Source: Alphaproteobacteria bacterium (GTDB lineage Bacteria; Pseudomonadota; Alphaproteobacteria; Rickettsiales; JAIXRX01). Taken from it: 41,866 nucleotides of DNA. A model generated the notes under the pieces. It worked only from the letters and a program-made list of their open reading frames with translations, did no database searches and was not told the origin of the DNA. The stretch covers positions 1-41,866 of the forward strand of contig JAIXRX010000035.1 of NCBI GenBank assembly GCA_027485005.1, written 5' to 3'. Made by a program: the position numbers and the translations under genes. Below are positions 1 through 41,866 of this stretch, piece by piece. The first letter of the stretch is position 1. Each line of letters begins with the position of its first letter.

Positions 1-1596
1 AACAGCGCCAAACGCCATGAGGTGCGCGAACAGTTAAAGCAATTACCGGATGTGGAGCGCGCGCTTTCCCGCCTTAGCCTTGGGCGTGGCGGCCCGCGCG
101 ACGCGCAGGCGATTTTAGTTGGCCTTAAAACCGCACAGGCGCTGCGAGAAACATTGTATGATGCCATAGAAAACCCCGCGCTTAAAAACGTACTCGGGGC
201 GTTGGTGCCATCAGACGCGCTAGTGGCGCAGTTGGAAAAAACATTAGCGGATGAATTGCCGCTACAAGCCCGAGATGGCGGGGTGGTGCGCGCAGGGTTT
301 CATGCCGCACTCGATGAATTTAGAAACTTGCGTGACCACGGCAAACAGCGCATTGCCGCCCTGCAAGCCGAGTATCAGACGCAAAGCGGCATTGCGACCT
401 TGAAGATTAAGTTCAATCATGTGCTGGGGTATTTTATTGAAATTACCAATAGCCACCAAAGCAAAGTGCCGGCTGAATTTATTCATCGGCAAACGGTGGC
501 GAGCGCGCTGCGCTACACCACCACTACGTTAGGCGAGCTGGAACGCAACCTGAAAGATGCCGCCGACAAGGCACTGGCGCTTGAGCAGGAGATTTTTGGT
601 GCCTTACTGCAAGCGGTGCTGGCGCAGGCCAGCCACATTACTACCACTGCTCGCGCGATGGCGCAGTTGGACGTCTTGGCGGCGCTCGCGCATTTGGCGC
701 AGAAACAACATTATGTGCGCCCGAAAATGGACGACGGGTTGGCATTTGAAGTGGAAGAGGGGCGTCACCCTGTGGTGGAAATTCACCGCGCGAAAGCGGG
801 CGAGGGGGCGTTTATTGGCAATGATTGCGCGTTGGCAGCAGGTGAGCGCTTGTGGTTGCTAACAGGGCCGAACATGGCGGGTAAATCCACGTTCTTACGG
901 CAAAATGCCTTGATTGTTCTGCTCACGCAGATGGGCAGTTTTGTGCCCGCCAAGCGCGCCCATATTGGGGTGGTGGACAAGTTATTTAGCCGTGTTGGCG
1001 CGTCGGACGATCTGGCGCGCGGCCGCAGCACCTTCATGGTGGAGATGGTAGAAACTGCCACCATCCTACACCAAGCAACAGAGCGCTCTTTGGTGATTCT
1101 GGACGAGATTGGGCGCGGCACAGCGACGTTTGACGGCATGGCAATTGCTTGGGCAGTGGTGGAATATCTGCACAATACCAATAAGTGTCGTGGTCTGTTT
1201 GCCACCCATTACCACGAGCTTAATGCGCTGCGCGAAAATTTGCCGCATCTTGGTGCCTTCCATATGCAGGTGAAAGAGTGGAAAGGCGAGGTGATTTTTC
1301 TGCACACGGTGGGGCGCGGCGGGGCAGATCGTTCTTATGGTGTGCATGTGGCTAAACTCGCCGGGTTGCCGACGGCGGTGGTGGCGCGCGCGCAAGAGCA
1401 GCTGGCGTGGCTGGAACAAAAGCCAGTGCAGGCCAAACAGGCGGAATTGGCATTGTTTGATGCCCCAGCCCCGGCAGTCAGTGAGCCACCAGCCTCCAAT
1501 CTGTTGGCAGCGGCGCTGGCGGAACTGGAGCCTGATGAAATGTCCCCAAAATCTGCGCTGGAAGCCATTTATCGGTTGAAAAAACTAATTTCTTAA
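1..1596 (+). CDS. mutS: DNA mismatch repair protein MutS, C-terminal ~530 aa (5' end outside window)
   Basis: The reading frame is open from base 1. It has Walker A GPNMAGKSTFLRQ, DEIGRGTATFDG and THYHEL motifs, and a C-terminal dimerisation tail. Confidence 0.95.
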   Translation, partial: NSAKRHEVREQLKQLPDVERALSRLSLGRGGPRDAQAILVGLKTAQALRETLYDAIENPALKNVLGALVPSDALVAQLEKTLADELPLQARDGGVVRAGFHAALDEFRNLRDHGKQRIAALQAEYQTQSGIATLKIKFNHVLGYFIEITNSHQSKVPAEFIHRQTVASALRYTTTTLGELERNLKDAADKALALEQEIFGALLQAVLAQASHITTTARAMAQLDVLAALAHLAQKQHYVRPKMDDGLAFEVEEGRHPVVEIHRAKAGEGAFIGNDCALAAGERLWLLTGPNMAGKSTFLRQNALIVLLTQMGSFVPAKRAHIGVVDKLFSRVGASDDLARGRSTFMVEMVETATILHQATERSLVILDEIGRGTATFDGMAIAWAVVEYLHNTNKCRGLFATHYHELNALRENLPHLGAFHMQVKEWKGEVIFLHTVGRGGADRSYGVHVAKLAGLPTAVVARAQEQLAWLEQKPVQAKQAELALFDAPAPAVSEPPASNLLAAALAELEPDEMSPKSALEAIYRLKKLIS

Positions 1597-1717
1597 GAAT
1601 ACGCGTAAAAACGCTGGATTTATGTTGTGAAAAGAGTATAAAGCGCCCCTCACGATTAAAATAACAGGCGCGTCATGTGCGCCCCGAAATTGTATAGAAA
1701 GACGAAAGGACTTAGCC

Positions 1718-1900
1718 ATGGCTGTTCCAAAACGTAAAACGACCCCTTCTAAACGTGGTATGCGCCGCGCGCACAAAGCCTTGCGTGGCACCAACATCAT
1801 TGAAGGTGCTGAAACCGGCGAACAAAAACGCCCTCACCACGTTTCTCCCGACGGCCATTACAACGGTCGTCAGGTGACGAAAGAAAAAGTAAACCGCTAA
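1718..1900 (+). CDS. rpmF: 50S ribosomal protein L32
   Basis: The N-terminus [22 protein letters not shown] is the canonical L32 signature. A GGA-rich RBS lies upstream, and the gene precedes plsX as in many bacteria. Confidence 0.95.
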
Positions 1901-1913
1901 TCTTTCATTAGCT

Positions 1914-2993
1914 GTGAGCAATGATTCTTTGCATGCGTCGGCATCTTTGCCGATTGCCTTAGATTGCTTAGGTGGCGACAATGCACCCTTCTGCGTGATA
2001 GAGGGAGCTTTGCTTGCTCATAAGCGCTACCCAGACTTGCGCTTTGTGCTTTTCGGCCCAAAAGACGCGTTGGAAAAACTTCTTTCAAAACATGAATCTT
2101 TACGCGCGCAATGTGACATTGAGCATTGTGACCAAGGTATTGCTGCGGACGAAAAGCCTTCTCAGGCCGTGCGCAAAGGCCGTGCCAGCAGCATGTGGCG
2201 TGCGATTGAAGCAGTGCGTGATGGCCGTGCATCGGCGATTATTTCTGCTGGGAATACCGGCGCACTCATGGCGTTTAGCAAACTCATTCTCAAAACCTTG
2301 CCAGGTATTTATCGCCCTGCGATTGTTGGCCGCATGCCGACGTCCAATGGCGAATGTGTGATGTTGGATCTTGGGGCGAATGTGGAATGTGACGCGCAAA
2401 CGCTGCAACAATTCGCTTTTATGGGGAGCGCCTTTGCCCGCGTCGTACTCGAAAAAGAAAATCCAAGTGTGGGGCTTTTAAATATTGGTTCGGAAATGTC
2501 CAAAGGCAAAGAAGAGCTAAAAGAAGCCTATCAACTATTAGATGCAGAGAAATCCTTTAACTTTCTAGGTTTTGTAGAAGCGCATGACATCGGTCATGGC
2601 CGCATTGACGTGGTGGTGACGGACGGATTTACCGGTAATGTCGCGCTGAAAATGTTGGAAGGCACAGCCTCGATGATTCGTTCATTTATCAAAGAAAGTT
2701 TCATGAGTTCCTTGTGGTCAAAATTATCGTATATTGTGGCAAAAGGCACGATTGCTAAATTGCGCAAGCGGGTGGACCCACGAAAATATAATGGTGCTAT
2801 GTTTATTGGCTTGAACGGGATTTCTATTAAAAGTCATGGCTCGGCGGATGGGTATAGTTTTTACCACGCGATTAAAGTCGGCTTGGGCATGGTCAATAAC
2901 AATCTAAACGCTCGTTTGCTAGCGGAGCTTGACGCGTCTGGTGCATTGCTGGACGCAGCAGATGCCGAAGATAAAGTGGTAGAACTCGCATGA
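1914..2993 (+). CDS. plsX: Phosphate acyltransferase PlsX
   Basis: PlsX-like motifs are present (IALDCLGGDNAP, SAGNTGALMA, TDGFTGNVALK). The gene sits in rpmF-plsX-fabH synteny. The start is GTG and is tentative. Confidence 0.9.
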   Translation: MSNDSLHASASLPIALDCLGGDNAPFCVIEGALLAHKRYPDLRFVLFGPKDALEKLLSKHESLRAQCDIEHCDQGIAADEKPSQAVRKGRASSMWRAIEAVRDGRASAIISAGNTGALMAFSKLILKTLPGIYRPAIVGRMPTSNGECVMLDLGANVECDAQTLQQFAFMGSAFARVVLEKENPSVGLLNIGSEMSKGKEELKEAYQLLDAEKSFNFLGFVEAHDIGHGRIDVVVTDGFTGNVALKMLEGTASMIRSFIKESFMSSLWSKLSYIVAKGTIAKLRKRVDPRKYNGAMFIGLNGISIKSHGSADGYSFYHAIKVGLGMVNNNLNARLLAELDASGALLDAADAEDKVVELA

Positions 2994-3955
2994 GTATTCG
3001 CAGTGTGATTGTTGGGCTGGGAAGCTATTTGCCAGAAAAAATTCTAACGAATACCGAGCTTGCTGAGCGTGTGGACACCAATGATGCATGGATTGTGGAA
3101 CGCACGGGTATTAAGCAGCGCCACATTGCCGCGGAAGGTCAGGTGACGTCTGATTTAGCGACCGAAGCGGCCAAAGCCGCGCTCAAAGACGCAGGTCTTA
3201 CGCCTAATGACATTGATATTGTGCTGGTAGCCACCAGCACTGCAGATGACACCATGCCAGCAACGGCCGTGCATGTGCAGCATAAATTGGGTATGACCCG
3301 TGGTGCGGCCTTTGATTTTCAGGCGGCCTGTTCTGGCTTTGTCTATGGCTTACACATGGCGGACGCTTTCTTGCGTGCGGGCAGCGCCAAGCGTATTTTG
3401 GTGGTTGGCGCAGAAACTTTTTCTCGCGTAGTGGACTGGAATGATCGCGGCACCTGCATTTTGTTTGGTGACGGTGCGGGTGCGGTTGTTGTGGAAGCGA
3501 GCGAAGGCGAAACCACGCGTGGCATTTTACATTCAGAAATTTTTTCGGACGGGCAGTATGCGGCGTTGCTGGGCACTACAGGCGGCACCTCTCGCACACA
3601 AACCACCGGTGTGGTGACCATGCAAGGCAAAGAAGTTTTCCGTCATGCGGTGAGCAAAATGGCCGACGTGGTCGAGCGCAGCTTAAAAGCTACAGGACAT
3701 ACGGTAGCAGATTTAGATTTCGTCGCGGCGCATCAGGCTAATGCCCGCATTCTGTCGTCCGTGGCAGAAAAACTTGGGCTTCCCGCTGAAAAAGCGCTGG
3801 TGAGTGTGGACATGCATGGCAACACCTCAGCGGCCTCAATTCCGCTCGCACTGGCGGCTGCAAAGGCCCAAGGGCGCCTAAAAGAAGGCCAGCTTTTGGC
3901 CTTGCCTGCCTTGGGTGCAGGCCTTACATGGGGCAACTGTTTGCTCCGTTGGTAG
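2990..3955 (+). CDS. fabH: 3-oxoacyl-ACP synthase III (KAS III)
   Basis: It shows an active-site Cys context (AACSGFVYGL), HQANARI and GNTSAASIP motifs. An ATGA overlap links it to plsX. Confidence 0.93.
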   Translation: MSIRSVIVGLGSYLPEKILTNTELAERVDTNDAWIVERTGIKQRHIAAEGQVTSDLATEAAKAALKDAGLTPNDIDIVLVATSTADDTMPATAVHVQHKLGMTRGAAFDFQAACSGFVYGLHMADAFLRAGSAKRILVVGAETFSRVVDWNDRGTCILFGDGAGAVVVEASEGETTRGILHSEIFSDGQYAALLGTTGGTSRTQTTGVVTMQGKEVFRHAVSKMADVVERSLKATGHTVADLDFVAAHQANARILSSVAEKLGLPAEKALVSVDMHGNTSAASIPLALAAAKAQGRLKEGQLLALPALGAGLTWGNCLLRW

Positions 3956-4044
3956 GAAGTATTTGCTTTTATTGCCTTTTTCTCTATAATCGTCTTTCAT
4001 AAGCGCATTTATCATCCATATGAGACGATTCAAAGGGGATAGAC

Positions 4045-4377
4045 ATGACCGAAGAGAAAACCATTACCCGTGCGGATTTAAGTAACGCTGTGTACCGCGA
4101 GGTCGGCGTGTCTTCGACAGAGTCAATGAATCTGGTGGATGCTTTTTTTGAAGAGCTCGCAAGCGCTTTTGAAAAAGGTGAATCAGTGAAACTCTCATCC
4201 TTCGGTACCTTCGCATTGCGCAAGAAAAAAGAGCGCGTGGGTCGCAATCCCAAAACAGGTGTGGAAGTGGCAATTACCCCGCGTACGGTGCTTACTTTCA
4301 ATGCGTCGAATATCTTGAAACAAGAAGTGAATGATGCGTTGGTCAAAGCAGAAAATGCTAGCGCCGTACAAAGCTAG
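4045..4377 (+). CDS. ihfA: Integration host factor subunit alpha
   Basis: It has the HU/IHF fold signature ([29 protein letters not shown]) and an alpha-type N-terminus (ITRADL). Confidence 0.9.
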
Positions 4378-4385
4378 TTTTACCC

Positions 4386-4856
4386 ATGGCGCAATTTGAT
4401 TTATTGGATTTAACGGGCGATCCGGAACCGCGTTTTACAAATGCAGACGACCCGCAAGCAAAGTCACCGCTGGCATACCGCACCATTTCTGAGGTGGCCG
4501 AGATGCTCAAAGTTCCCGTGCATGTTTTGCGCTTTTGGGAAACAAAATTTTCGCAATTAAAACCCACGAAAGCCAAAGGTGGACGCCGTTATTATCGGCC
4601 GGAAGATATTGCGCTACTTAAGCAGATTTACGAATTGCTTTATGGTCGTGGATTTACGATTAAAGGTGCAGAAATTGTTCTTTCAGGAGTGGCGGAGGAA
4701 AATGCTGCTCTGCAAGTGGCCGCAGACATACGTGCGAATGCCGCGCATCTTCCAACGCTTTCACCAGTGAAAATTGGCGAAATGCGCCGCGAGCTGGAAA
4801 CAGCACTTGCAGAACTAAAACATCTGCGGCATACCCTTGCTCCATACCGTCCTTAG
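4386..4856 (+). CDS. MerR-family transcriptional regulator
   Basis: It has a MerR-type HTH ([25 protein letters not shown] ... [11 protein letters not shown]). Its position after ihfA is the usual alphaproteobacterial arrangement. Confidence 0.8.
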
Positions 4857-5075: not shown

Positions 5076-5133
5076 AAATGCTTTGGCTCCAGTCTTTTCA
5101 CCTTTGAAGCAGGTTCAGTTGATATGTCATAAA

Positions 5134-5138
5134 ACTGT
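5134..5138. repeat. Target-site duplication ACTGT (copy flanking the phage right end)
   Basis: The pentamer is identical to 37591-37595 and directly abuts the TG terminus. Confidence 0.8.
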
Positions 5139-5183
5139 TGTAGCGCGACACTTAGTTTGTCATGACACGACACTTAGTTTGTC
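5139..5183 (+). repeat. Phage right-end transposase-binding repeats (two tandem sites, 22-bp phasing)
   Basis: TGTAGCG-CGACACTTAGTTTGTC is followed by ATGACA-CGACACTTAGTTTGTC. The identical 16-nt core occurs at 5146-5161 and 5168-5183. Confidence 0.75.
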
Positions 5184-30804: not shown

Positions 30805-31097
30805 GCGTTGTTCCTTTCAGTCTGGTTATTGGCTCGGCGCTGGCGCTCAAGGCGGATGTCGTACACATTTGGCCCTTCATGGATAAGAGAGGGGTCGATG
30901 TTGATTTTGCCTTCCAGCTGCTCAACCACTTTGCTGAGGTCTCCTAGGAAGGCGATGATGCCAACCCATTCATCGAGTGGGATGGACAGGTTCATCTCCT
31001 CATGTCGCAAATCTCGCGGCGGCATGTAACGGGACATGATTTGCTGGACACGCTTAATTGCGCCAGGAACGGTACGATTAGGTGATGTATTATTCAT
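30801..31097 (-). CDS. Hypothetical early protein (98 aa)
   Basis: The ORF is tightly overlapped with its neighbours in the early operon. I recognise no motif. Confidence 0.5.
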   Translation of the reverse strand: MNNTSPNRTVPGAIKRVQQIMSRYMPPRDLRHEEMNLSIPLDEWVGIIAFLGDLSKVVEQLEGKINIDPSLIHEGPNVYDIRLERQRRANNQTERNNA

Positions 31098-31470
31098 GAC
31101 GTTTCCTCCCGCAGGTGTTATGCGCGCATCGACGGCATTCCCGAAAGAGTGCGACCGCCTGGTGATTGGCTGGTGAATAGGGTGAAAGCTGATGCTTCAT
31201 GCAGATAGGCCCATCAATCATGCCCAAAATCGGGCACTGCACTTGCTGGGCGTTAAAGGCCGCTTCAACGCGTGCTTGAACCTGCATTAAATCGCCTGGG
31301 TAACGATTTTTAAGCACCTGATTGACCAGGCTCGCCGAGCGACCAATCTTGCGGGCGGCGTCCGCCTGCGTGTGCTGATCTGCATACTCAGCCAATCGCA
31401 TCACCCATTCAGGTAAGGTTGGCACCCAATGCTCTTTTGCCAGAGCCATGGCGCTTACAACTGGCTTCAT
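31090..31470 (-). CDS. HTH DNA-binding protein with Cys-rich C-terminal part
   Basis: It has an HTH (QADAARKIGRSASLVNQVLKNRY) followed by C-x10-C ... C-x2-C-x4-C. An ATGA overlap links it to the upstream gene. Confidence 0.6.
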   Translation of the reverse strand: MKPVVSAMALAKEHWVPTLPEWVMRLAEYADQHTQADAARKIGRSASLVNQVLKNRYPGDLMQVQARVEAAFNAQQVQCPILGMIDGPICMKHQLSPYSPANHQAVALFRECRRCAHNTCGRKRHE

Positions 31471-32026: not shown

Positions 32027-32776
32027 CTAGAATCTCCGAGCTTGAGGTGGGGTAGCGGAATGAAGAGGGCGCTTGCCCCATTCTTTCAGACCAACTTCCG
32101 CCCACTCATGCCCTGCGGCCTCGTCATAAATACGATCTAGGTTGGTGACAATACGGCGCACGCTACCATGCGCATCGTTCACGATCTGCTCCAGAAGGTC
32201 GTCTTTGATCGTAATGGCAGGGACAAAATGCTTGGCCAGAATGCGGCCATCTTCCATATTGGCAGGCACCGCTTGCGCCCAACGTAATACGCGGCCATGG
32301 AAGCGCTCCCAGCGGCGTAGCTTTTGTGGCAAGGCCTCTTCACCGATCAACACGATGGGAGCTTTGCTTTGCTCATAAATGTCGCGCACCAGCTCCACCA
32401 GATTGCGGTCAACCAGGTTGTCGGCTTCGTCGATCAACAGCGGTCGTTGACTAAGCGCCAGTTCCTCGCTCACTTGATCTGTCATCGCTGAAATTGTCTT
32501 GGCGGGTTGGATGCCCAGCTGCAGCAGCACAGCTTCTAGGAAGGCTTTCTTTGTCCAGACACTGCGCACCTCAACATAGGTTGCGCCGTATTTAGCGGCG
32601 ACAGATGCAACAGCAGTTGATTTTCCGAAACCTGATGGGCCGCTAAATGTAACGATACCCGGAAGATGTGCCGCACGGTTTATGGTGTGGAGCAGCAGCT
32701 CGTTCAGGATGGTGATGTTGCGCAATGGCGCAATCCCGCCAGTGCTTGGATTGACCTTTTCTTTTTTTGATGTCAT
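32027..32776 (-). CDS. MuB-like AAA+ ATPase (DNA transposition protein B)
   Basis: It has Walker A (GPSGFGKST) and Walker B (LLIDEADNL) and lies directly downstream of the transposase gene. Confidence 0.85.
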   Translation of the reverse strand: MTSKKEKVNPSTGGIAPLRNITILNELLLHTINRAAHLPGIVTFSGPSGFGKSTAVASVAAKYGATYVEVRSVWTKKAFLEAVLLQLGIQPAKTISAMTDQVSEELALSQRPLLIDEADNLVDRNLVELVRDIYEQSKAPIVLIGEEALPQKLRRWERFHGRVLRWAQAVPANMEDGRILAKHFVPAITIKDDLLEQIVNDAHGSVRRIVTNLDRIYDEAAGHEWAEVGLKEWGKRPLHSATPPQARRF

Positions 32777-32801: not shown

Positions 32802-34937
32802 TTACATGGGTGGGACATCCAGCGTTGCATCGCTGGGTGTTTCATTCAGCAGCATCTCTGCTGCTGGAGCGGCGGTTAGTTCATCCGCATCTATTTCTTC
32901 TGGCCACCACGCACGGTCGCTGACACGGCCAATCCACTTACGATCACGGTCGCTAATGCCTTCGCCACGGGCCACACTGGCAGCAATGGCGCGCACGCGC
33001 TTGGCCCATAACTCACGGTCACTAAACGCCACCTCTTGATCATGCACGGTGGCTTGGCGGGCGGGCTTTTGAAGTGGCAATATTTCTACGGCACGGGATG
33101 CTTCATCCATTGCATGGGTGCTGAACTCTTCCACGCGCTGCGGGAATGACAGCACCTTGGTGTCAGCGTGTAGCGCCAGCAACCCATCGGCCAGTTCCTT
33201 TTTGTTCAATCCACGGCGGATACGGTTCAGCTCTTTCTTGCTTTCGCTGATCAGATTGGCCTGCGCCGCTTTTAGCTGCGCAGCGAACTGCATCGGATCG
33301 ATACCAATGGTTTGCGGGTTAATCGCCTCAAACAGGTAATTGCTGTTTTCATCGAAAGCATAGACCCGGCCAAGGTCAGCCGGGTCATGCCGCACCAGCA
33401 CGTCTTTCCCAATATACGGGAGCAACGCTTCGCTGATGTAAGACAGGCCATCCACGCGGATGCCTGATTTCGTAATGCGGCGCATGCCACCGCCTGCCGC
33501 GATAGGGGCAAGCAGCAGATCAAGGGCGCGCTCGCTAGCGGGTTTTTGTACTGGATGCGGCCATTGCGCGGCGCGCTCATTGGGTGACATCTTCAAGGCG
33601 GAATGCACCGCATTGCCATATTTACCAGCTGCCCAACTATCGAGAGCAACTTGCAATTCTTGAGCGGTCATGCCCACTGAGAATGCAGCAGCATCGCTCT
33701 CACCCATGCGGGACGCGAAGTCTTTTTGCTCACGGATACGTTGGCGGTGCGCCACGCTATGGCCAGAGAAACCCGGCAGGATGGCCATCAGGTCGCGCTG
33801 CATGGTGCCAATCACGCGCTCAACAAATGGCTTTTTCTCTGGCGAGTATGGCGGTGAAATCTCTTGCAAAATGCCCACGCCAGCCAGTGCCATTGTAAAG
33901 CGGCGGCTCACAAAGTCAGCGCCATTATCGGTCTTGATCGTTTCTGGTTTGCCCCATGCCATAATGGCCTTACGCACCAGCAGCAGGGAAGCCTCGGTTT
34001 TCGCGGTCTTGCTCACACTAAACATGGCGCGGCGGCTCCATACGTCGATCAGCGCATAAATGCTGTAACGGCCATCGCTGCAAATCGCATCGGCGGGCGA
34101 GGCATCGATCTGCCACATCTGGTTGAGGCCAGTGATATGTGCATCTGCATCACCCACGGCCACCTTGTGGGTGTTTTTGTATTGCCCAGGTGAAGTCACA
34201 GCCATGAACAGTGCGCTGTTCTCCTGTTTCCATTCCACGATATGGCGCTCAAAGGCGCGCAAGGATGGCAGCGGGAAACACCGCCCATTAACATCCAGCA
34301 TCGTACCAAACTTCATGCGCACAAAATCGCGCAGATGCCCGCCTTTATAATCGCGGTTATCAGTCAGCAGGGCAGCAACATACTTGGCCACAGCACCACC
34401 GCAGGCGCGGCTTAATATGCTGGTGCCTTTACGTTTGCCATAGCGACCGCCCAGCAACTCTGGCTGCGTGGTGGCGGCTTTGCACCAGCGGTGCAGCGTG
34501 CGGGTGCAAAGCTCCGGCACCACACAATAAGGCATTTTATGAGGTGTCATAGCGCGTTCCACGCGGTACTGCGCAAGAAATATCTCCGCACCATGATGGG
34601 TCGATATCCCATTCAGGCGGCAGAAATTTTGGTAGCTTGTCACAATCATAAGCTTGGCCAACTGGCGGCCTTGCTGGCCGTTTGGCTTTGTTTCTTCAAG
34701 CTGCACTGCCGCCATTTGAAGCTTCGGCGTTTCCGCCGCCACCTTTTGCAAAATGGCATGCTGCAATTTTGCAGGCAACATGGTCAGCGGATAGATACGG
34801 CCACCGCCTTTGCCTTCACGTTTAATAGATGGCCAGCCTTCTTTTTTGGCGCGGATGTTTATCCTTTGCTCTGTACCTGGCAAAACATCTAGATTTAACC
34901 CAGCTAACTCTCGTGCGGTGTAGTGCTCCCTGATCAT
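32802..34937 (-). CDS. Mu-type DDE transposase A
   Basis: It has an N-terminal Mu-like DNA-binding domain (YTARELAGL) and a DDE core (WQIDASPAD, IKTDNGADF, PFVERVIGT). I chose the start at 34937 (SD GGGGAG, ATGA overlap with the upstream ORF). Confidence 0.9.
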   Translation of the reverse strand: MIREHYTARELAGLNLDVLPGTEQRINIRAKKEGWPSIKREGKGGGRIYPLTMLPAKLQHAILQKVAAETPKLQMAAVQLEETKPNGQQGRQLAKLMIVTSYQNFCRLNGISTHHGAEIFLAQYRVERAMTPHKMPYCVVPELCTRTLHRWCKAATTQPELLGGRYGKRKGTSILSRACGGAVAKYVAALLTDNRDYKGGHLRDFVRMKFGTMLDVNGRCFPLPSLRAFERHIVEWKQENSALFMAVTSPGQYKNTHKVAVGDADAHITGLNQMWQIDASPADAICSDGRYSIYALIDVWSRRAMFSVSKTAKTEASLLLVRKAIMAWGKPETIKTDNGADFVSRRFTMALAGVGILQEISPPYSPEKKPFVERVIGTMQRDLMAILPGFSGHSVAHRQRIREQKDFASRMGESDAAAFSVGMTAQELQVALDSWAAGKYGNAVHSALKMSPNERAAQWPHPVQKPASERALDLLLAPIAAGGGMRRITKSGIRVDGLSYISEALLPYIGKDVLVRHDPADLGRVYAFDENSNYLFEAINPQTIGIDPMQFAAQLKAAQANLISESKKELNRIRRGLNKKELADGLLALHADTKVLSFPQRVEEFSTHAMDEASRAVEILPLQKPARQATVHDQEVAFSDRELWAKRVRAIAASVARGEGISDRDRKWIGRVSDRAWWPEEIDADELTAAPAAEMLLNETPSDATLDVPPM

Positions 34938-35116
34938 GAGCGCTCCCCATGTGTTTTGGCAGCGCGCAAGTCCTGCAAGCGGGCATAGGTGCTTTCCACG
35001 CAGCCATCGCAAATATGGAAAGACGCAGCGCTCTTAAATAAAAACTCCACCTCTGAATAAGGTTTATGGCAGCACGAGCAGCCGGGAGGGGTGGCAGGAA
35101 GAGGCATGTTAATCAT
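34934..35116 (-). CDS. Stand-alone ClpX-type C4 zinc-finger protein (60 aa)
   Basis: CSCC-x19-CDGC with ...SEVEFLF...FHICDGCVE parallels the ClpX N-domain (CSFCGKSQHEV...VYICDECVD). A strong SD (GGAGG) is present, and its stop overlaps the transposase start. Confidence 0.7.
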   Translation of the reverse strand: MINMPLPATPPGCSCCHKPYSEVEFLFKSAASFHICDGCVESTYARLQDLRAAKTHGERS

Positions 35117-35600
35117 GTTGCACCTCCACTACAAAACGGCTGGCCTCTGCGCATTTTTGCAGGGCGGCATCCATACTGCCAGCATACCAGAGGGTTTGCT
35201 GCGCGAGGCGGTCATATATTTCCCAGGCAGTACCAGCGCCCTGAGCTGCCCGCTTATTGCGGCGTATCAATGTCGGGGGAGTATTCCCGCCTGACGCTTG
35301 GGAAGGAAGGCGCTGAATCATCACTTCCAGCTTTTTCACACGGTCTTCAAGACCAACTTTTTCACGCATTAAAGCCGCCGTATCCTCAACGCTTTTTAGG
35401 CGCTCGGTCAGTGCAATCAGATCATACTGTGCATCGTCTGGTTTATTGTCGATCAACTCATCCAGCATCGATTGAAGCTGAACGCCTCGGTTATCCTGAT
35501 CCAATACAGCACGCGCCAGCACATGGTTGGTGCGTTGATATTTGTTCAGCTCATTTTGAAAGAGCGAAAGTTGTTGCCCATAGGCGCTATCCTTTTTCAT
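35109..35600 (-). CDS. Hypothetical coiled-coil early protein (163 aa)
   Basis: It has SD GGAGGG and a TAATG overlap with the upstream ORF. Its composition is helical and heptad-like. I recognise no motif. Confidence 0.55.
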   Translation of the reverse strand: MKKDSAYGQQLSLFQNELNKYQRTNHVLARAVLDQDNRGVQLQSMLDELIDNKPDDAQYDLIALTERLKSVEDTAALMREKVGLEDRVKKLEVMIQRLPSQASGGNTPPTLIRRNKRAAQGAGTAWEIYDRLAQQTLWYAGSMDAALQKCAEASRFVVEVQHD

Positions 35601-35884
35601 TACACCCTCCGGTCTTCTTCCATGGCCACCCACTTGCCATAGCCAGTCATGGCCACAGGCACGGCGGCCAGAATCAATGTGGTTAAAACGATGATTAAAG
35701 CCGCATTGAAGGCCTTGCTCGCCAACAGGCGCTGCATGGTGCGCTCACGCTTTAAGGCGCGGCACTCAATGTGGCGTTTGGTGATTGTCGGTGTGGCGAG
35801 CCTGCAAGCCGCCACACCGTCTCCCCACGCTTGGAGGGCACTGTCAGGGTGGGTGGGGAGAAACTGGATGCAATGGCGGTTCAT
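35600..35884 (-). CDS. Hypothetical small protein with C-terminal TM segment
   Basis: It is 94 aa with a TM segment (FNAALIIVLTTLILAAVPVAM) and overlaps the ner stop. Confidence 0.45.
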   Translation of the reverse strand: MNRHCIQFLPTHPDSALQAWGDGVAACRLATPTITKRHIECRALKRERTMQRLLASKAFNAALIIVLTTLILAAVPVAMTGYGKWVAMEEDRRV

Positions 35885-36189
35885 GCCGCACCTCGCGCAT
35901 TTAATTTTTGGGATTGTGTTTGGCGGCTTATTGTTCTAGCTTTGCGCGCAGTTCTTGTGCCAATGCGCTGACCCTGCTTGTCATACCAAGCAGGCCAGAG
36001 GCTGTGCAGCGAGACACCAAGGAATTTAGCAATTGCATGTTGAGCCGCAGGAAAAGGTGTAGTCATTGCAATGTGACATGCGTCTTTGCAAAGCCCTGCA
36101 TCAATTGCTATTGCGCGCATAGTAGTACCGCGTTTGCGAACTGCGGCCTTGATGTCTTCCCTATGCCAGCCTTTTTTGTTTTGTGACAT
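35881..36189 (-). CDS. ner: Ner-like early transcriptional regulator
   Basis: GWHREDIKAAVRKRGTTMRAIAIDAGL...HAIAKFLGVSLHSLWPAWY closely parallels the Mu Ner/Nlp signature. The SD is GGAGAG. Confidence 0.85.
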   Translation of the reverse strand: MSQNKKGWHREDIKAAVRKRGTTMRAIAIDAGLCKDACHIAMTTPFPAAQHAIAKFLGVSLHSLWPAWYDKQGQRIGTRTARKARTISRQTQSQKLNARGAA

Positions 36190-36380
36190 GAACTCTCCAT
36201 TATGACGGGTTACAGCCCGTTTTTTTGGCGTTGTTGAATTAAGCTAACTAAATGTGTGTTCGCACAATAAAGCGGATATAGCAACATTAAAAAGCGATGT
36301 TTTGCGAATGTCCGTTTTTTTATACGAATTGATGTGACTTTTCGGACACGCCCTGATAGAGGGCGGGCAAAGTATTGGAT
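36190..36380. promoter_or_regulatory. Divergent repressor/early control region (operators, Pe/Pc; probable transposition enhancer by analogy to Mu)
   Basis: This AT-rich 190-bp gap lies between the divergent ner and repressor genes. It contains the inverted repeats TGTG-N4-CACA and AACAT-N10-ATGTT and a hairpin plus T7 run at 36205-36227. Confidence 0.5.
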
Positions 36381-37175
36381 ATGATGGTGTTTAAAGACCG
36401 ACTAAAAATAGCTATGAAAGAGGAATCTGTACTTGGCTTCGCAAAAAAAAGCGGGCTGAGTGAGGGGGCTATTCGGCAATACCTCAAAGGTAGTGAGCCG
36501 GGGCTTGATAAGGTCATAGCAATTGCTGCTGCAGCCGGGGTATCAGCGGCATGGTTAGCCACAGGCGAAGGTAAGCCTGACTCTAGCTATCGCTCGTCTG
36601 CTTTGGCGGATTCTTCTGTGCCCTCGCAATTCAGGGCACAACCATTGCGTAGTAAAGATGGTGAAGAAATGTATCTCTCAATGGCTGCTGCCAATACTTC
36701 TACCATCAAACTGGATAAATCCTCCTATGAGGCAAAAATAAACGAGGTTGATGACACCTCTTCTGTAGCCGTTCCATTACTCAGTATTCATGCGAGTGCA
36801 GGTGGTGGCGCAGCTGTGCTAAGTGAAGAAGGTGATGACTATATACGGTTCAGCGCACGCATGTTGCGAGGCCTTGGCTTGGAACCGCTCCACACATTTG
36901 TAATGCCAGTGCTAGGGGACAGCATGGAGCCGCGTATCCGATCAGGCGAGCTGATGCTTTGTAGTCGTGCGCCGCAACACCTCAAAGGAGCGGACGGCAC
37001 TTACATCGTGCGCCTGGAAGGTGATATATTGGTCAAACGCATCCAGCGACTGCCGGGCGGCAAGGTCGTTGTCTCCTCTGAAAACACAGGTTACAGCCCC
37101 TTTGAAATCATCTTAAATGACGGGGTAGATTTTGCCATTCTAGGCATGGTGCTGGTGGTGTTTCGCAAGGTTTAG
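36381..37175 (+). CDS. CI/LexA-like repressor (XRE HTH plus S24 autopeptidase domain)
   Basis: The N-terminal HTH (GFAKKSGLSEGAIRQYLKG) and the C-terminal S24 motifs GDSMEP (Ser) and VKRIQ (Lys) are present. The track start at 36375 is TTG; the ATG at 36381 or 36384 is more likely. Confidence 0.85.
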   Translation: MMVFKDRLKIAMKEESVLGFAKKSGLSEGAIRQYLKGSEPGLDKVIAIAAAAGVSAAWLATGEGKPDSSYRSSALADSSVPSQFRAQPLRSKDGEEMYLSMAAANTSTIKLDKSSYEAKINEVDDTSSVAVPLLSIHASAGGGAAVLSEEGDDYIRFSARMLRGLGLEPLHTFVMPVLGDSMEPRIRSGELMLCSRAPQHLKGADGTYIVRLEGDILVKRIQRLPGGKVVVSSENTGYSPFEIILNDGVDFAILGMVLVVFRKV

Positions 37176-37567: not shown

Positions 37568-37590
37568 GACATACTAAGTGTCGTTCCACA
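37568..37590 (-). repeat. Phage left-end terminal repeat (L1 site)
   Basis: Its reverse complement, TGTGGAACGACACTTAGTATGTC, matches 5139-5161 at 19 of 23 positions and ends with CA on the plus strand. Confidence 0.75.
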
Positions 37591-37595
37591 ACTGT
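37591..37595. repeat. Target-site duplication ACTGT (copy flanking the phage left end)
   Basis: The pentamer is identical to 5134-5138. Confidence 0.8.
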
Positions 37596-37598
37596 CAT

Positions 37599-37626
37599 TT
37601 GACCTTTGCTAGGCCTTTCATACAAT
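37599..37626 (+). promoter_or_regulatory. Sigma70-type host promoter TTGACC-N16-TACAAT
   Basis: It has near-consensus hexamers and lies about 30 nt upstream of the ATG at 37657. Confidence 0.55.
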
Positions 37627-37656
37627 GCCACCAAATCTACCAATAGTGAGTGTTGT

Positions 37657-38136
37657 ATGAGCGAAAATGCATCTAAAACAGAAAGCTTTGATCCCGAAAA
37701 ATATCGCCCTTCTCCAGAAAGTGTGAAATCAGAACGCCAAACATATAGTCTTGTTTGGGGAGCTATGGCGGCGATGATATCAGGCATGGTGGGTTATATG
37801 GCTGCCGAATGGCAAAAATGTGGATCACAAACAAAAGGCTGGATCACCGGTATAAGTGCTGTTGCGGGCGGATTGATAGGAGGATATATCCTCGGCAAAA
37901 AGACCGAAACTGAGGGTGAGGTTATTTATAAAATGGCGCAAGAGGCTGCCAAAAGACCTGATCCAGAGAAGGCTATGCAAGACGGTCTTGCCAAACGTGA
38001 AAAAGACAAAGAAATGCTTATGGCTATGGCGATGATAGATCAGGCCAATCAATCAGCGAATGCTAACGCTAATTATTTTCAAACATACGCCAATCCAGCG
38101 GCGGGCGGCGGGTATGGTGGTATGGGGCGCTTCTAG
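37657..38136 (+). CDS. Small membrane protein (2 Gly-rich TM segments), unknown function
   Basis: It has two TM segments (SLVWGAMAAMISGMVGYMAA and WITGISAVAGGLIGGYILG). I prefer the ATG at 37657 to the track start at 37606. Confidence 0.6.
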   Translation: MSENASKTESFDPEKYRPSPESVKSERQTYSLVWGAMAAMISGMVGYMAAEWQKCGSQTKGWITGISAVAGGLIGGYILGKKTETEGEVIYKMAQEAAKRPDPEKAMQDGLAKREKDKEMLMAMAMIDQANQSANANANYFQTYANPAAGGGYGGMGRF

Positions 38137-38219
38137 TTTTTATTCTTATCCGCCCATTGCTTATTCCGTGCGGGGGCATATAATGCGCGTCCCATTCCAC
38201 TCATATAGAGGTTTTATCC

Positions 38220-38822
38220 ATGAATATTCGTTTTGCTTGCGCCGCTTTGGTGGCATTGTCTTGTTCTTCTGCGGCATTGGCTGCTAGCTCTGCGCATGAC
38301 AGCGCTCTCACCAAAACCAAAAACGTAGTGGTTACCGAGCGCGGTGATTGCGTATTGACCAAATGGATGAATAGCAGCAACCCATGTGGCACTAAAGTAG
38401 AAGAGCCTAAAAAAGTGGTGAAAAAAGCAGCGCCAGCACCTGTGGAAAGCCTTACCAACGATCAGCGTAGCATTTATTTTGACCTTAACAGCGCAACCTT
38501 GACGCTGGATAGCCAAGCGAAACTAGACGCGCTGGTGGCAGCGGTGAAAGCTTCGACTGGCGTGAAAAAAGCAACCGTGATTGGTTATGCAGATGCTTTA
38601 GGCAAATCAGACCATAATGTGGATTTATCAAAACGTCGTGCGGGGGCTGTTCAGAATTATCTCGCTTCTCGTATCAATATTCCAACTAGCACCAGCTTGG
38701 TGGAAGGCAAAGGCGCTACCGATTCTGTGACCAACTGCCCAAGCAGCTTGAAGCGTCCAGAGCTTGTTAAATGCCTTGCGAAAGATCGTCGCGTGGAAAT
38801 CGAACTTGATTATAGCAAATAG
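38220..38822 (+). CDS. OmpA-family peptidoglycan-binding protein with signal peptide
   Basis: It has an N-terminal signal sequence and an OmpA-C-like domain (IYFDLNSATL...VIGYADALGKSDHNVDLSKRRAGAVQNYL...RRVEIEL). Confidence 0.8.
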   Translation: MNIRFACAALVALSCSSAALAASSAHDSALTKTKNVVVTERGDCVLTKWMNSSNPCGTKVEEPKKVVKKAAPAPVESLTNDQRSIYFDLNSATLTLDSQAKLDALVAAVKASTGVKKATVIGYADALGKSDHNVDLSKRRAGAVQNYLASRINIPTSTSLVEGKGATDSVTNCPSSLKRPELVKCLAKDRRVEIELDYSK

Positions 38823-38844
38823 TCTGTTCAGATAATTAACATAA

Positions 38845-38879
38845 AAACCCGCGCTGCGTTTGCATCGCGGGTTTTTTGT
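38845..38879 (+). terminator. Rho-independent terminator
   Basis: AAACCCGCG-N12-CGCGGGTTTTTTGTT. Confidence 0.8.
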
Positions 38880-38913
38880 TATACACTCAGCATTCACATT
38901 TAGGAGCCTTACT

Positions 38914-39750
38914 ATGTTTCGTTTGGGTCGTTCTTCCTATTTACAAGGGTTTGGTGGCGGCGGTCGTGGTGGTAATTTCACCTTCGCGCTTATTTTGGTG
39001 GCGATGGCGTTTTTCAGTTATTTCAGTTCCAGCGAACATAATGAATTAACGGGCGAGACCCAGCGTGTGGCGCTCAGCGCGGATCAAGAAATTGCGCTAG
39101 GTCTCAATGCCGCGCCGCAAATGATGAGCCAATATGGTGGCGAGGACCGTAATGCGCGCGATGTGGCGCGGGTGAAAGCGATTGGTGCGCGGTTGGTGGA
39201 GCGCAGCGCGGTGGCCAGAACCAATTGGCAATTTGAATTTCATTTGCTGGCGGATAATCAAACCATCAATGCCTTTGCACTGCCAGGTGGACAGGTGTTT
39301 ATTACGCGGGCTTTGTATGAGCAGCTCGACACTGACGGCCAACTAGCGGGGGTGCTAGGGCATGAGATTGGACATGTGGTGGCACGCCACGGCGCCGAAC
39401 ATATGGCCAAAGAAAAACTGACCCAAGGGCTGGCACAGGCAGCGGTTGTAGCGTCGGGGGATCATGGGGCAGGGCAGATGGCGGCCATGGTAGGAAAAAT
39501 GGTGAATATGAAATATGGGCGCGAAGATGAGATAGAATCGGACGTGTTGGGCGTGCGTTTTATGAGCGAAGCAGGCTATGATCCGCGTGGTTTGCTGCAT
39601 GTGATGGCGGTCTTGAAAAAAGCAGCGGGTGGCAAACGGCAGGCTGAATTTTTTAGTACCCACCCGAATCCTGATAACCGCGAGCAGCGGATTTTAGCGG
39701 CAATTGAACAAGCATTCCCGCAAGGTTTGCCAAGCGGTTTAGAGAAATAA
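38914..39750 (+). CDS. M48-family Zn metallopeptidase
   Basis: It has the HEIGHVVARH (HExxH) motif, an N-terminal TM segment and a downstream glutamate region. I chose the ATG at 38914 because the track start lies inside the terminator. Confidence 0.8.
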   Translation: MFRLGRSSYLQGFGGGGRGGNFTFALILVAMAFFSYFSSSEHNELTGETQRVALSADQEIALGLNAAPQMMSQYGGEDRNARDVARVKAIGARLVERSAVARTNWQFEFHLLADNQTINAFALPGGQVFITRALYEQLDTDGQLAGVLGHEIGHVVARHGAEHMAKEKLTQGLAQAAVVASGDHGAGQMAAMVGKMVNMKYGREDEIESDVLGVRFMSEAGYDPRGLLHVMAVLKKAAGGKRQAEFFSTHPNPDNREQRILAAIEQAFPQGLPSGLEK

Positions 39751-39762
39751 TAGGAGAAAAAA

Positions 39763-40290
39763 ATGAGTGACCACCCGAATGCTGTTGAGCGTATTTTCGA
39801 AAAAGGATTATTTGCCAGCCGTTGGTTGATGGTGCCTATTTATGTAGGGCTTGCGTTAGCGCTTGTACTACTTTTGTTTAGCTTTGCCCAAGAGTTGCTG
39901 CATTTGTTTAGCGCTATTCCGAACATCACGCAGTCGGAAGTGATTTTGGGTATTTTGTCGCTTATCGATTTATCGCTTGCGGGAAATCTATTGCTGATTG
40001 TGATTTATTCTGGCTACGAAAACTTTGTATCTAAAATCAATACAGATGACCATGAAGACCAGCCCGATTGGAAAGGCTCGGTAGATTTTACGGCACTGAA
40101 GCTAAAACTGATTGCCTCGATTGCGGCGATTTCTGCGATTCATTTGCTCAAAGTATTTATGGATATTGGAAAATATACGGAAGACCAGATTCGTTGGATG
40201 GTGATCATCCATGTGGTGTTTGTTATTTCTGGTGTGATGCTCGCGTGGATGGATAGTATTGCGGCCAGTGCAAAATCCTATAAGAAATAA
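39763..40290 (+). CDS. yqhA: UPF0114 family membrane protein (YqhA-like)
   Basis: The N-terminus (ERIFEKGLFASRWLMVPIYVGL) and multi-TM topology are typical of YqhA. Confidence 0.75.
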   Translation: MSDHPNAVERIFEKGLFASRWLMVPIYVGLALALVLLLFSFAQELLHLFSAIPNITQSEVILGILSLIDLSLAGNLLLIVIYSGYENFVSKINTDDHEDQPDWKGSVDFTALKLKLIASIAAISAIHLLKVFMDIGKYTEDQIRWMVIIHVVFVISGVMLAWMDSIAASAKSYKK

Positions 40291-40291
40291 A

Positions 40292-40852
40292 TTAGCGCAT
40301 CATCGCTGTTTCATAGGTGATGGCGGAGTTTGGCGCGTTGCGTCCAGCGCGGCGTGCATCTTCCATTTTTACAAAGCTTTTAGTGGGAGCCTCAGGCTCA
40401 TTCGTTTCTTGCCCACGCGGCAGGTCCATGCTGGGCAGGTTATTATTGACCGCCGGCGCTTCTTTTTGCACGCCTGCACTGAGGGTGGGTTCAACACCGC
40501 CCATGCCGCGTTCTAGGCCGCGTCCTTGAGCAAGGCTGGCTTCTTGTGCGGCGGCCTGCTGTTGGTCTTTAGCTGCGCCGATGGAAGTTCCAATCGCTGA
40601 TCCAATCATTTTACCCAAAAGTAAAACCCCTGCTGCGGCTAAGCCTGCGACGGCAATAGGACCGATAAATGCGGGTAATGCAAAAGAGCCAATGCTTATA
40701 ATACCTGCGGCACTTGTGCTGAGCAGGCCACCTGCCGTCGCGAGAGAGGAAGTAACTGCACCATAGGTGGCATATGCGCCTGCGGCACCTGCCAGTAAGC
40801 CCAAAAGCCCACCCCACATTTTGCCTTTCTGTGTATTTTCACCTTCTTCCAT
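40292..40852 (-). CDS. Gly/Ala-rich membrane protein (glycine-zipper-like), unknown function
   Basis: It has repeated GxxxG/A-rich hydrophobic segments and a polar C-terminal half. Confidence 0.55.
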   Translation of the reverse strand: MEEGENTQKGKMWGGLLGLLAGAAGAYATYGAVTSSLATAGGLLSTSAAGIISIGSFALPAFIGPIAVAGLAAAGVLLLGKMIGSAIGTSIGAAKDQQQAAAQEASLAQGRGLERGMGGVEPTLSAGVQKEAPAVNNNLPSMDLPRGQETNEPEAPTKSFVKMEDARRAGRNAPNSAITYETAMMR

Positions 40853-40963
40853 GCTGGCCTCCTTAAATTACTGCCATCTTTATTTTTCTACTATAGCGCA
40901 GAAAGGTTAAAGTTTTATGACAGTGTGGCAGGAAAGCAGAAAATAGAGGAAATGAGGTGCGTT

Positions 40964-41668
40964 TTAGGCCGCCAGTAAGGCTTGCAGCATCGGCGCGCCG
41001 TCGGCACCACCCACCATGCTGTCGGCATAGCGCTCAGGGTGCGGCATCATACCCAGCACGTTTTTACCTGCATTAAACACGCCTGCAATATTGCTGAGTG
41101 AGCCGTTCGGGTTGGCTTCCGCCGTTACTTGGCCATCCTCGGTGCAATAGCGGAAGGCGATTTGGTCATTGTCTTCCATAGCTTTTAGCGTGTCAGCCGC
41201 TGCAAAATAATTGCCGTCATGATGCGCCACAGGAATGGTGATAACTTGGTTTTTGTTGTAGTTTTTGGTGAAGGCGGTGGCGGTGCTTTCCACGCGCAGC
41301 TGCACGGGTTTGCAAACAAATTTTAAGCCCGCATTACGCAATAACACCCCTGGGACAAGGCCAGCCTCGGTCAGAATCTGGAAGCCATTGCAAATGCCAA
41401 GGGTCAAGCCGCCGCGATTCGCATGAGCGACCACGTCTTTCAGAATGGGTGAATTCGCTGCCATGGCGCCCGAGCGCAAGTAATCACCATAGGAAAACCC
41501 ACCCGGCAACACCACTAAATCCACTTTTGGCAAGGCCGCATCCCCGTGCCAGACTTTGGTGATGTCCGACGGTTTGGCCGCACCCGACACCGCCGCCAGC
41601 GCGCTGAGCGCCGAATAGGCGTCGCGGTCGCAGTTGGAACCAGGGAAGGTAATGACAGCAGCTTTCAT
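40964..41668 (-). CDS. purQ: Phosphoribosylformylglycinamidine synthase subunit PurQ (glutaminase)
   Basis: [26 protein letters not shown] (catalytic Cys) and MMPHPER motifs are present. Confidence 0.92.
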
Positions 41669-41777
41669 GGGCTTTTCCTTGAAGTAATAAGAATTTTTAT
41701 CTTTTTGCCGCAGTCTTCATCATTTCGCAACAATTTTAAGATATGGTAAGCTTATTCAACCTTAAGAAAAAGGCTTT

Positions 41778-41866
41778 ATGTCCTCAACCCAATCTCCCGC
41801 AGCCACTCAGTGGAATGAAAAAGTCAGAGGATTTCGTGCCGTTGCGAAGGGAGAAGGCTTGTCTGA
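41778..41866 (+). CDS. Partial ORF of unknown function (3' end outside window)
   Basis: An ATG at 41778 opens a frame that runs to the window edge (MSSTQSPAATQWNEKVRGFRAVAKGEGLS...). It is divergent from purQ. Confidence 0.3.
   Translation, partial: MSSTQSPAATQWNEKVRGFRAVAKGEGLS

Follow-up and report, generated by a model that had tools for sequence, protein, structure and literature searches.

The early operon of a Mu-like prophage in an alphaproteobacterium of the order Rickettsiales encodes a stand-alone protein of 60 amino acids (aa) that very likely belongs to the family of the zinc-binding domain (ZBD) found at the N-terminus of the unfoldase ClpX. The prophage lies in GenBank contig JAIXRX010000035.1, of which positions 1 to 41,866 of the forward strand were analysed; this whole stretch of 41,866 nucleotides (nt) is referred to here as the window. 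The gene of this mini-protein occupies positions 34934 to 35116 of the minus strand, directly upstream of the Mu-type transposase gene A. It is truly protein-coding, forms part of the early (ner-A-B) operon and, as judged from the comparison of related loci, is a lineage-specific accessory gene and not a conserved partner of the transposase. By its sequence the protein has kept the ZBD scaffold and not the canonical docking surface. Our best reading of the whole, to which we assign a probability of about 40%, is that of an early accessory protein, specific to its lineage, that descends from the ClpX N-domain, acts through the ClpX pathway and is possibly a retargeted mimic.

The open reading frame (ORF) of the ZBD gene (MINMPLPATPPGCSCCHKPYSEVEFLFKSAASFHICDGCVESTYARLQDLRAAKTHGERS; 60 codons, minus strand) starts at an ATG (35116-35114) that is preceded at 6 nt by the Shine-Dalgarno (SD) sequence GGAGG (35123-35127, minus strand). 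An alternative in-frame ATG (35107) is 15 nt from the same SD, versus 6 nt for the first, and M1 is therefore the likely start. The ORF fills the gap between its two neighbour genes exactly. On the one side its start overlaps the TAA stop of the upstream 163-aa gene in the sequence ATGATTAA (35109-35116, minus strand), a junction that is absent from the initial annotation of this DNA. On the other side its TGA (34936-34934) overlaps the transposase ATG (34937-34935) in an ATGA (34934-34937, minus strand), and the SD of the transposase, GGGGAG (34943-34948, minus strand), is contained within the ZBD gene. A transposase start at 34937 is backed by the N-termini of homologues. It is also the start called independently on a duplicate contig (L001, identical in sequence and derived from a public sequencing run), on which the ZBD gene was likewise called. 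A simple consensus scan of 34600-36500 detected neither a sigma-70-type promoter, on either strand, nor any site on the minus strand that resembles a terminator, so the ZBD gene appears to be part of the early transcript. On re-reading of the sequence, the ORF, the four-cysteine motif, the strong SD and the ATGA overlap proposed in the initial annotation were all correct. The translational coupling to the transposase that it deduced is real as far as the overlap goes, but is unspecific, because neighbouring genes along the whole operon share 1, 4 or 8 nt at their junctions, which is the norm here.

The predicted zinc ligands of the mini-protein (C13, C16, C36 and C39) form a C-x2-C-x19-C-x2-C pattern. 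Of the 814 segments between stop codons that measure 30 aa or more in the window, only 2 contain a CxxC-x16-22-CxxC motif, and the 19-residue spacer is also met in other family members (units of the repeat protein P0002). The proposed identity as a stand-alone ClpX-type zinc finger is borne out by the profile search that had been suggested as a check: the Pfam family zf-C4_ClpX (PF06689) matches significantly, with 35.3 bits against a curated gathering cut-off of 27 (E 1e-8), and aligns residues 13-47 with profile positions 3-37 of 39. No other Pfam family matches the mini-protein at E<=1, including the DksA/TraR C4, Mu Com and Ogr/Delta fingers, and no PHROG matches it at E<0.09. The NCBIfam ClpX equivalog aligns its positions 7-46 with residues 12-52 (E 8e-4). 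A hidden Markov model (HMM) of our own, built from 13 ZBD units with the mini-protein left out of the building set, gives 36.0 bits (E 2e-9) in a search of 12,852 ORF segments from 96 loci and the window. When the four cysteines were kept in place and the remaining residues permuted, none of 2000 shuffled sequences scored as high as the true sequence, which has 36.2 bits (shuffles: maximum 16.5, mean 0.1, standard deviation 3.0); the similarity to ZBDs therefore exceeds the mere cysteine pattern.

An AlphaFold model computed from the ZBD alignment has a mean predicted local distance difference test (pLDDT) of 80.9 and consists of a beta-hairpin and a long helix (residues 37-57). In the PDB it is matched best by 9a5x_A, an integrative model of ClpX with ClpP, and by the crystal structures of the ClpX ZBD, 2DS5-2DS8, the latter with a root-mean-square deviation of 0.7-0.8 Å over 38-39 residues and template modelling (TM) scores of 0.81-0.90. 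The predicted layout is a proline-rich, disordered N-terminus (1-12), a domain spanning approximately residues 13-47 and the long C-terminal helix. No AAA+ module follows the ZBD; the ORF stops at 60 aa and the transposase gene is next, so the protein is not ClpX. A degraded phage clpX fragment is ruled out by the lack of an AAA+ remnant downstream and by the identity to canonical ZBDs, which is 24-38%.

The mini-protein is an outlier among ZBDs and, from the aligned residues, the most divergent of the free-standing copies. The ZBDs were aligned to the HMM, and positions are given here in the numbering of the Escherichia coli ClpX literature. Among 42 distinct ZBDs from viral contigs, the residue equivalent to F16 is F in 41 and is C15 in the mini-protein; L42 is L or I in 41 of 42 and is replaced by S42; and at I46 the residue is one of the hydrophobic I, L, V, M and A in 41 of 42 and is replaced by R46. 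Two further ClpX residues, G18 and Y34, correspond to H17 and H34. The four cysteine ligands are retained, as are the serine after the first cysteine, K18 and a hydrophobic core formed by V23, L26, I35, V40 and L47. The residues C15, H17 and H34 (ClpX F16, G18 and Y34) are situated beside the zinc knuckles and are potential metal ligands, which could form a second or an intermolecular metal site.

The N-terminal ZBD has been described as a docking and dimerisation module of ClpX (PMC5415555, PMC9035409) and the docking site for MuA, FtsZ and adaptors (PMC5415555, PMC7804408). The contribution of this domain to the recognition of MuA and of adaptors, which the initial annotation had given as background, is correct (PMC5415555). 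Supplied in trans, the isolated ZBD competitively inhibits adaptor-mediated degradation in the RssB-sigmaS system (PMC7226468, Fig. 1d). Because the ZBD docks, dimerises and inhibits in trans, mimicry of the ClpX N-domain is the simplest hypothesis to account for a ZBD that a phage makes as a free protein. The mini-protein would descend from the ClpX N-domain and serve as a small module for protein-protein interactions, produced early along with the transposition proteins; by mimicry it would interfere with, or plug into, a recognition step of the host that depends on the ClpX N-domain. F16 and I46 form part of the hydrophobic region that binds lambdaO, trigger factor (TF), SspB and RssB (PMC7804408). 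Since F16, L42 and I46 are C, S and R in the mini-protein, a plain decoy for the canonical ligands (lambdaO-type degrons, SspB/RssB-type tails) appears unlikely and retargeting more probable, and the replaced residues likewise speak against a simple competition for canonical ZBD ligands. Candidates for the new partner are an early protein of the phage, an adaptor of the host, and ClpX itself, contacted by way of its dimerisation surface.

A more elaborate form of this idea is a captured and re-engineered ClpX N-domain, that is, a retargeted docking-domain mimic that times ClpX in transposition-replication or arrests the host cell cycle. Such a protein could cap the dimerisation surface of the host ClpX ZBD, or it could sequester a partner such as a CpdR-like alphaproteobacterial adaptor or the phage's own transposase complex. 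We regard this elaborated version as unlikely. A role in the ClpX pathway of any kind, including the transposase-specific role considered below, is proposed here tentatively, as clearly less likely than not.

Several observations weigh against a descendant of the ClpX N-domain that works through the ClpX pathway. The structure prediction asked for in the initial annotation gives a divided answer: the alignment-based model agrees with 2DS5-2DS8, but a model from the single sequence is poor (pLDDT 54.9), so that the better model depends on the ZBD alignment and adds no independent evidence. The pairwise match to the E. coli ZBD is weak (E 0.3-0.6 in a search against the PDB). The near-invariant hydrophobic residues F16, L42 and I46 are replaced, and because F16 and I46 lie in the region that binds lambdaO, TF, SspB and RssB, canonical docking was probably lost in this copy. 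The turn that typically reads L-I-A-G-P in ClpX reads L-F-K-S-A. The protein is known from one sequence (on two identical contigs), which provides no evidence of purifying selection, and the host ClpX is not encoded in the window.

The alternative that survives best is a zinc ribbon that is independent of ClpX, in which the ZBD scaffold was recruited as a generic small finger to bind nucleic acid or a host or phage protein unrelated to ClpX, much like other small regulatory or host-targeting proteins that transposable phages encode in their early regions. The loss of three near-invariant hydrophobic surface positions and of the AGP turn would be expected of such a protein. Treble-clef fingers are versatile, and the lower-ranked Foldseek matches of the model are GATA, RING and ZZ fingers. 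The slot between ner and A is hypervariable as well, with unrelated small ORFs in relatives and, in more distant relatives, a gene whose product looks winged-helix-like by eye. However, the ClpX ZBD is the sole significant family match of the mini-protein, and inspection of the sequence indicates an approximately neutral net charge with no obvious basic DNA-binding surface. To our knowledge, all activities described for the ZBD family are docking of ClpX substrates or adaptors and dimerisation, which also counts against a function apart from ClpX. This explanation is on balance rather unlikely, while still deserving serious consideration.

A second alternative, close to the proposal of the initial annotation, is that the mini-protein is a dedicated partner of the transposase that tunes the disassembly of the transpososome by ClpX, supplies in trans the recruitment of ClpX for which the untagged C-terminus of the transposase is not equipped, or controls the stability of the repressor. 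The position of the ZBD gene, directly upstream of A and overlapping it, would lead to near-stoichiometric co-production of the two proteins. The ClpX N-domain helps in the recognition of MuA (PMC5415555), and the transposase of the window has no tail of the RRKKAI type and carries a uniquely acidic WWPEEID stretch. The comparative data do not support a functional link between the mini-protein and the transposase, however. Transposase loci from GTDB (5), IMG/VR (3) and metagenomes (79) and from contigs of close relatives (3) were scanned with the ZBD HMM, and the only matches were in the window and in its duplicate contig. Among the 50 independent loci that include the N-terminus of a related Mu-type transposase and at least 400 nt upstream of it, none has a ZBD upstream. 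Conversely, no Mu-type transposase was found within 5 kb of the ZBD in any of 80 viral ZBD loci (the best 80 of 455 IMG/VR stretches). The survey of ZBDs beside Mu-type transposases that the initial annotation had suggested thus speaks against its proposal from both directions.

The closest relatives of the transposase share 51-57% identity with it and belong to prophages with the same c/ner/.../A/B/DUF3164/GemA/Mor order. In three syntenic prophages (L012-L014) no Cys-rich ORF occupies the slot immediately upstream of A: in L012 it contains a 42-aa ORF, in L013 it is empty, and in L014 a 52-aa ORF is found there with a DUF7220 ORF after it. In two distant alphaproteobacterial relatives (32-38% transposase identity; L002 3654-4004 and L004 3624-4004) a gene of 116-126 aa overlaps the transposase start. 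The product resembles an OmpR-type winged helix by eye only, and the L004 copy starts with CRCC.

The tail of the transposase does end in ...ATLDVPPM without the Mu tag, as had been claimed, but tagless tails occur family-wide: the C-termini are hypervariable with or without a ZBD, and none is like the RRKKAI of MuA. At 15-30 residues from the C-terminus, a basic W-[YF]-K-x-R-K stretch is shared by many relatives; there the transposase of the window has the acidic WWPEEIDADE (within the last ~40 residues, 32802-32930). The repressor of the prophage is of the S24 (LexA/CI) type and not Mu c, and for this reason the paradigm of Mu Rep and ClpXP is not directly transferable. Together with the replaced docking-patch residues and with the overlaps of 1-8 nt that occur operon-wide, these results make a dedicated transposase partner quite improbable. 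The poorest account is a chance ORF or a decaying, functionless remnant, which would fit a singleton without orthologues that has lost its canonical surface residues, but which is highly improbable in view of the Pfam match (E 1e-8), the shuffling control, the four retained zinc ligands and core residues, the good SD and an ORF that fills its intergenic space with exact overlaps on both sides.

The surrounding element is a Mu-like transposable prophage by its A, B, Ner, GemA/Mor and head genes, and its synteny is common to L012-L014. The early genes are on the minus strand. The transposase A (32802-34937, 711 aa) contains the domains HTH_Tnp_Mu_1 (PF02316), rve (PF00665) and Mu-transpos_C (PF09299) and is followed by a MuB-like AAA+ transposition ATPase (32027-32776, 249 aa; AAA_22, TniB). 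Downstream of B are genes for DUF3164, GemA and a Mor-like protein, together with genes for lysis and head genes of the Mu gp27 type (Phage_Mu_Gp27). The first gene of the early operon encodes a Ner-like regulator (35881-36189; HTH_35), and the repressor is divergently encoded on the plus strand (36375-37175; HTH_3 and Peptidase_S24; gene-caller start 36381). Between ner and the ZBD gene are two orphan early genes of 94 aa (35600-35884, with a hydrophobic segment) and 163 aa (35109-35600). Neither matches a family in Pfam, PHROGs or NCBIfam, and neither has a relative in the viral contigs or the fetched loci. The closest relatives carry ~175-aa genes in the place of the 163-aa gene, which has no demonstrable homology to them; its product resembles, from its sequence, an N-terminal coiled coil with a small C-terminal domain. 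Because the contents of the slot vary among relatives and the 94-aa and 163-aa genes are orphans too, the ner-to-A segment is a hypervariable accessory region.

Another small gene lies downstream of B (31090-31470, minus strand, ~126 aa), and its size and position are kept in L012-L014 (126, 130 and 124 aa). By reading, its product has a helix-turn-helix-like stretch (ARKIGRSASLVNQVLKNRYPGD) and a Cys-rich C-terminus (C-x13-C...C-x2-C-x4-C), which makes it a possible further zinc-binding protein of the early region. Precomputed annotation lists no Pfam match for this gene, of which no dedicated scan was made, or for its counterparts in L012-L014.

Candidate ends of the prophage were identified on both sides. 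At the candidate right end (5125-5183) the sequence TGTCAT (5125-5130) is followed by CGACACTTAGTTTGTC at 5146-5161 and again at 5168-5183. At the candidate left, repressor-side end (37568-37598) the 16-nt motif is found in inverted orientation (37568-37583), followed by TGTCAT (37593-37598). The terminal motif can be written as CGACACTTAGT(T/A)TGTC and is present in two copies at one end and in one inverted copy at the other. TGTCAT is a direct repeat that flanks the two ends. These ends imply an element of ~32.5 kb, where the 6-nt TGTCAT match, having been found in such small search intervals, could be due to chance. The host flanks comprise positions 1-4856 and 37606-41866 of the window. 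The first contains mutS (cut at the contig end), plsX, fabH, a 110-aa ORF and a MerR-type regulator; the flank beyond the prophage contains a 176-aa glycine-rich membrane protein, an OmpA-like protein, an M48 protease, a TIGR00645 protein and a split purQ. The proteins of the host flanks all fall in clusters of 1-2 sequences at 90% identity, and the host lineage is therefore barely sampled. The host-flank DNA has no match in the plasmid or E. coli collections. The nearest named relatives of the transposase are from Alphaproteobacteria, and the gene order plsX-fabH...MerR and the split purQ likewise point to an alphaproteobacterial host.

A word-indexed search of 5.8 billion proteins retrieved the mini-protein itself only, as a singleton cluster. 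With phmmer, 1.84 billion representative sequences yielded eight matches, which are the query, six tandem-ZBD repeat proteins and one low-complexity sequence that looks spurious; no stand-alone orthologue is among them. The repeat proteins (P0002, P0003 and P0005-P0008) are cellular and have two to four tandem ZBD units joined by short linkers, with no ATPase; we know of no described function for them. A tblastn search of 50,697 phage records with the mini-protein gave nothing significant (best E 0.01). The best match (L096; MT835938.1, 'Bacteriophage sp.' from human faeces) was discarded, as it is a full-length clpX in a tig-clpP-clpX row that looks like bacterial DNA or a host flank. A scan of viral contigs led by the mini-protein gave 600 pattern matches of which 0 were confirmed, the sequence being too divergent for confirmation by tblastn.

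Canonical ZBDs recovered more. The E. coli ZBD matches 68 of the same phage records by tblastn, and the scan of viral contigs, when repeated with the ZBD of Pseudomonas phage phi1 as the lead, yielded the 455 ZBD-encoding IMG/VR stretches of which the best 80 were examined. The ZBD ORF of these 80 loci is at most 80 aa long in 25, 81-150 aa in 8 and 151-350 aa in 5, and is a full-length ClpX in 42. Of the 25 shortest, 22 are phi1-like (L097-L118). In phi1 itself (Detrevirus) the ZBD-only coding sequence ALY08156.1 (65 aa; L094 2498-2695) follows replication protein P and is annotated as 'ATP-dependent Clp protease ATP-binding subunit'. In the record of Pantoea phage PdC23, a ZBD ORF of 66 aa in a nin-like region (L095 2471-2671) has no annotation. 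Escherichia phage P88 encodes a 110-aa protein with a C-terminal ZBD (AIZ95127.1; L008 2815-3147), the gene DNA of which is present in 112 of 5426 complete E. coli genomes, where the Prokaryotic Genome Annotation Pipeline (PGAP) names the product 'ClpX C4-type zinc finger protein'. Pseudomonas phage Alize encodes a 109-aa protein with an N-terminal ZBD (WWQ71581.1; L007 5995-6324) two genes upstream of the integrase. Free phage ZBDs therefore already exist as annotations (phi1, P88 and Alize). Full-text literature searches found no functional study of a stand-alone or phage ZBD, in agreement with the statement of the initial annotation that no characterised example was known. The mini-protein is a divergent addition to these catalogued, uncharacterised free ZBDs of temperate phages and the only one seen beside a Mu-type transposase. 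The ZBDs of phi1, P88, Alize, PdC23 and the 22 phi1-like contigs keep the hydrophobic residues at F16, L42 and I46. Since the docking patch is retained, the proteins of phi1, P88, Alize and PdC23 could plausibly be plain decoys, and ZBDs of their type look like better natural candidates for a decoy of the ClpX N-domain than the mini-protein does.

ClpX sets the timing of the dismantling of the Mu transpososome and the fate of many phage and host regulators, and its N-terminal zinc finger is a hub for substrate and adaptor docking. Free ZBDs are scattered through temperate phages; approximately two-fifths of the 80 IMG/VR loci examined are short ORFs that are not ClpX. If these proteins are natural decoys or adaptors, they would constitute a portable phage means of reprogramming host proteolysis and could also serve as a laboratory tool. 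Compared with the ZBDs of phi1 or P88, the mini-protein is less readily seen as a decoy, and if functional it would represent a natural experiment in the retargeting of a ZBD. Should the interpretation as a retargeted mimic be true, it would be the first natural ZBD-mimic regulator of an AAA+ unfoldase.

Small early accessory ORFs for host-targeting proteins, located between the repressor or ner and the transposase, also occur in transposable Pseudomonas phages, for example Tip of D3112 and Aqs1 of DMS3. The sequences and the targets (PilB and LasR) of these two proteins are unrelated to the mini-protein, and neither has a zinc finger. The anti-adaptors IraD, IraM and IraP and the isolated ZBD offer an analogy of function only, as small proteins that alter the substrate choice of ClpXP by binding at a docking surface and not at the ATPase; the Ira proteins do not have the ZBD fold and bind the adaptor RssB, which is blocked by IraD (PMC6546054). 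The tandem-ZBD repeat proteins are the best sequence matches among the 1.84 billion representatives and share the occurrence of ZBDs outside of ClpX, but they are multi-domain and cellular and have canonical CSFC...AGP...ICDEC units. The proteins of phi1, P88, Alize and PdC23 are similar in being short phage proteins with a single ZBD and no ATPase that are encoded in early, replication or lysogeny regions. They differ in that they belong to lambdoid, P2-like or integrase-bearing phages, lie beside replication, nin or integrase genes, and keep the canonical CSFC/CDFC knuckle and the hydrophobic L42 and I46, which are changed in the mini-protein. The ClpX N-terminal ZBD itself (PF06689; 1OVX, 2DS5-2DS8) has in common with the mini-protein the four cysteine ligands in a CxxC-x18/19-CxxC arrangement, the conserved core and, in the predicted structure, the beta-hairpin with a C-terminal helix. 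The mini-protein departs from it in having no AAA+ module and in the replacements F16 to C, G18 to H, AGP to KSA, Y34 to H, L42 to S and I46 to R.

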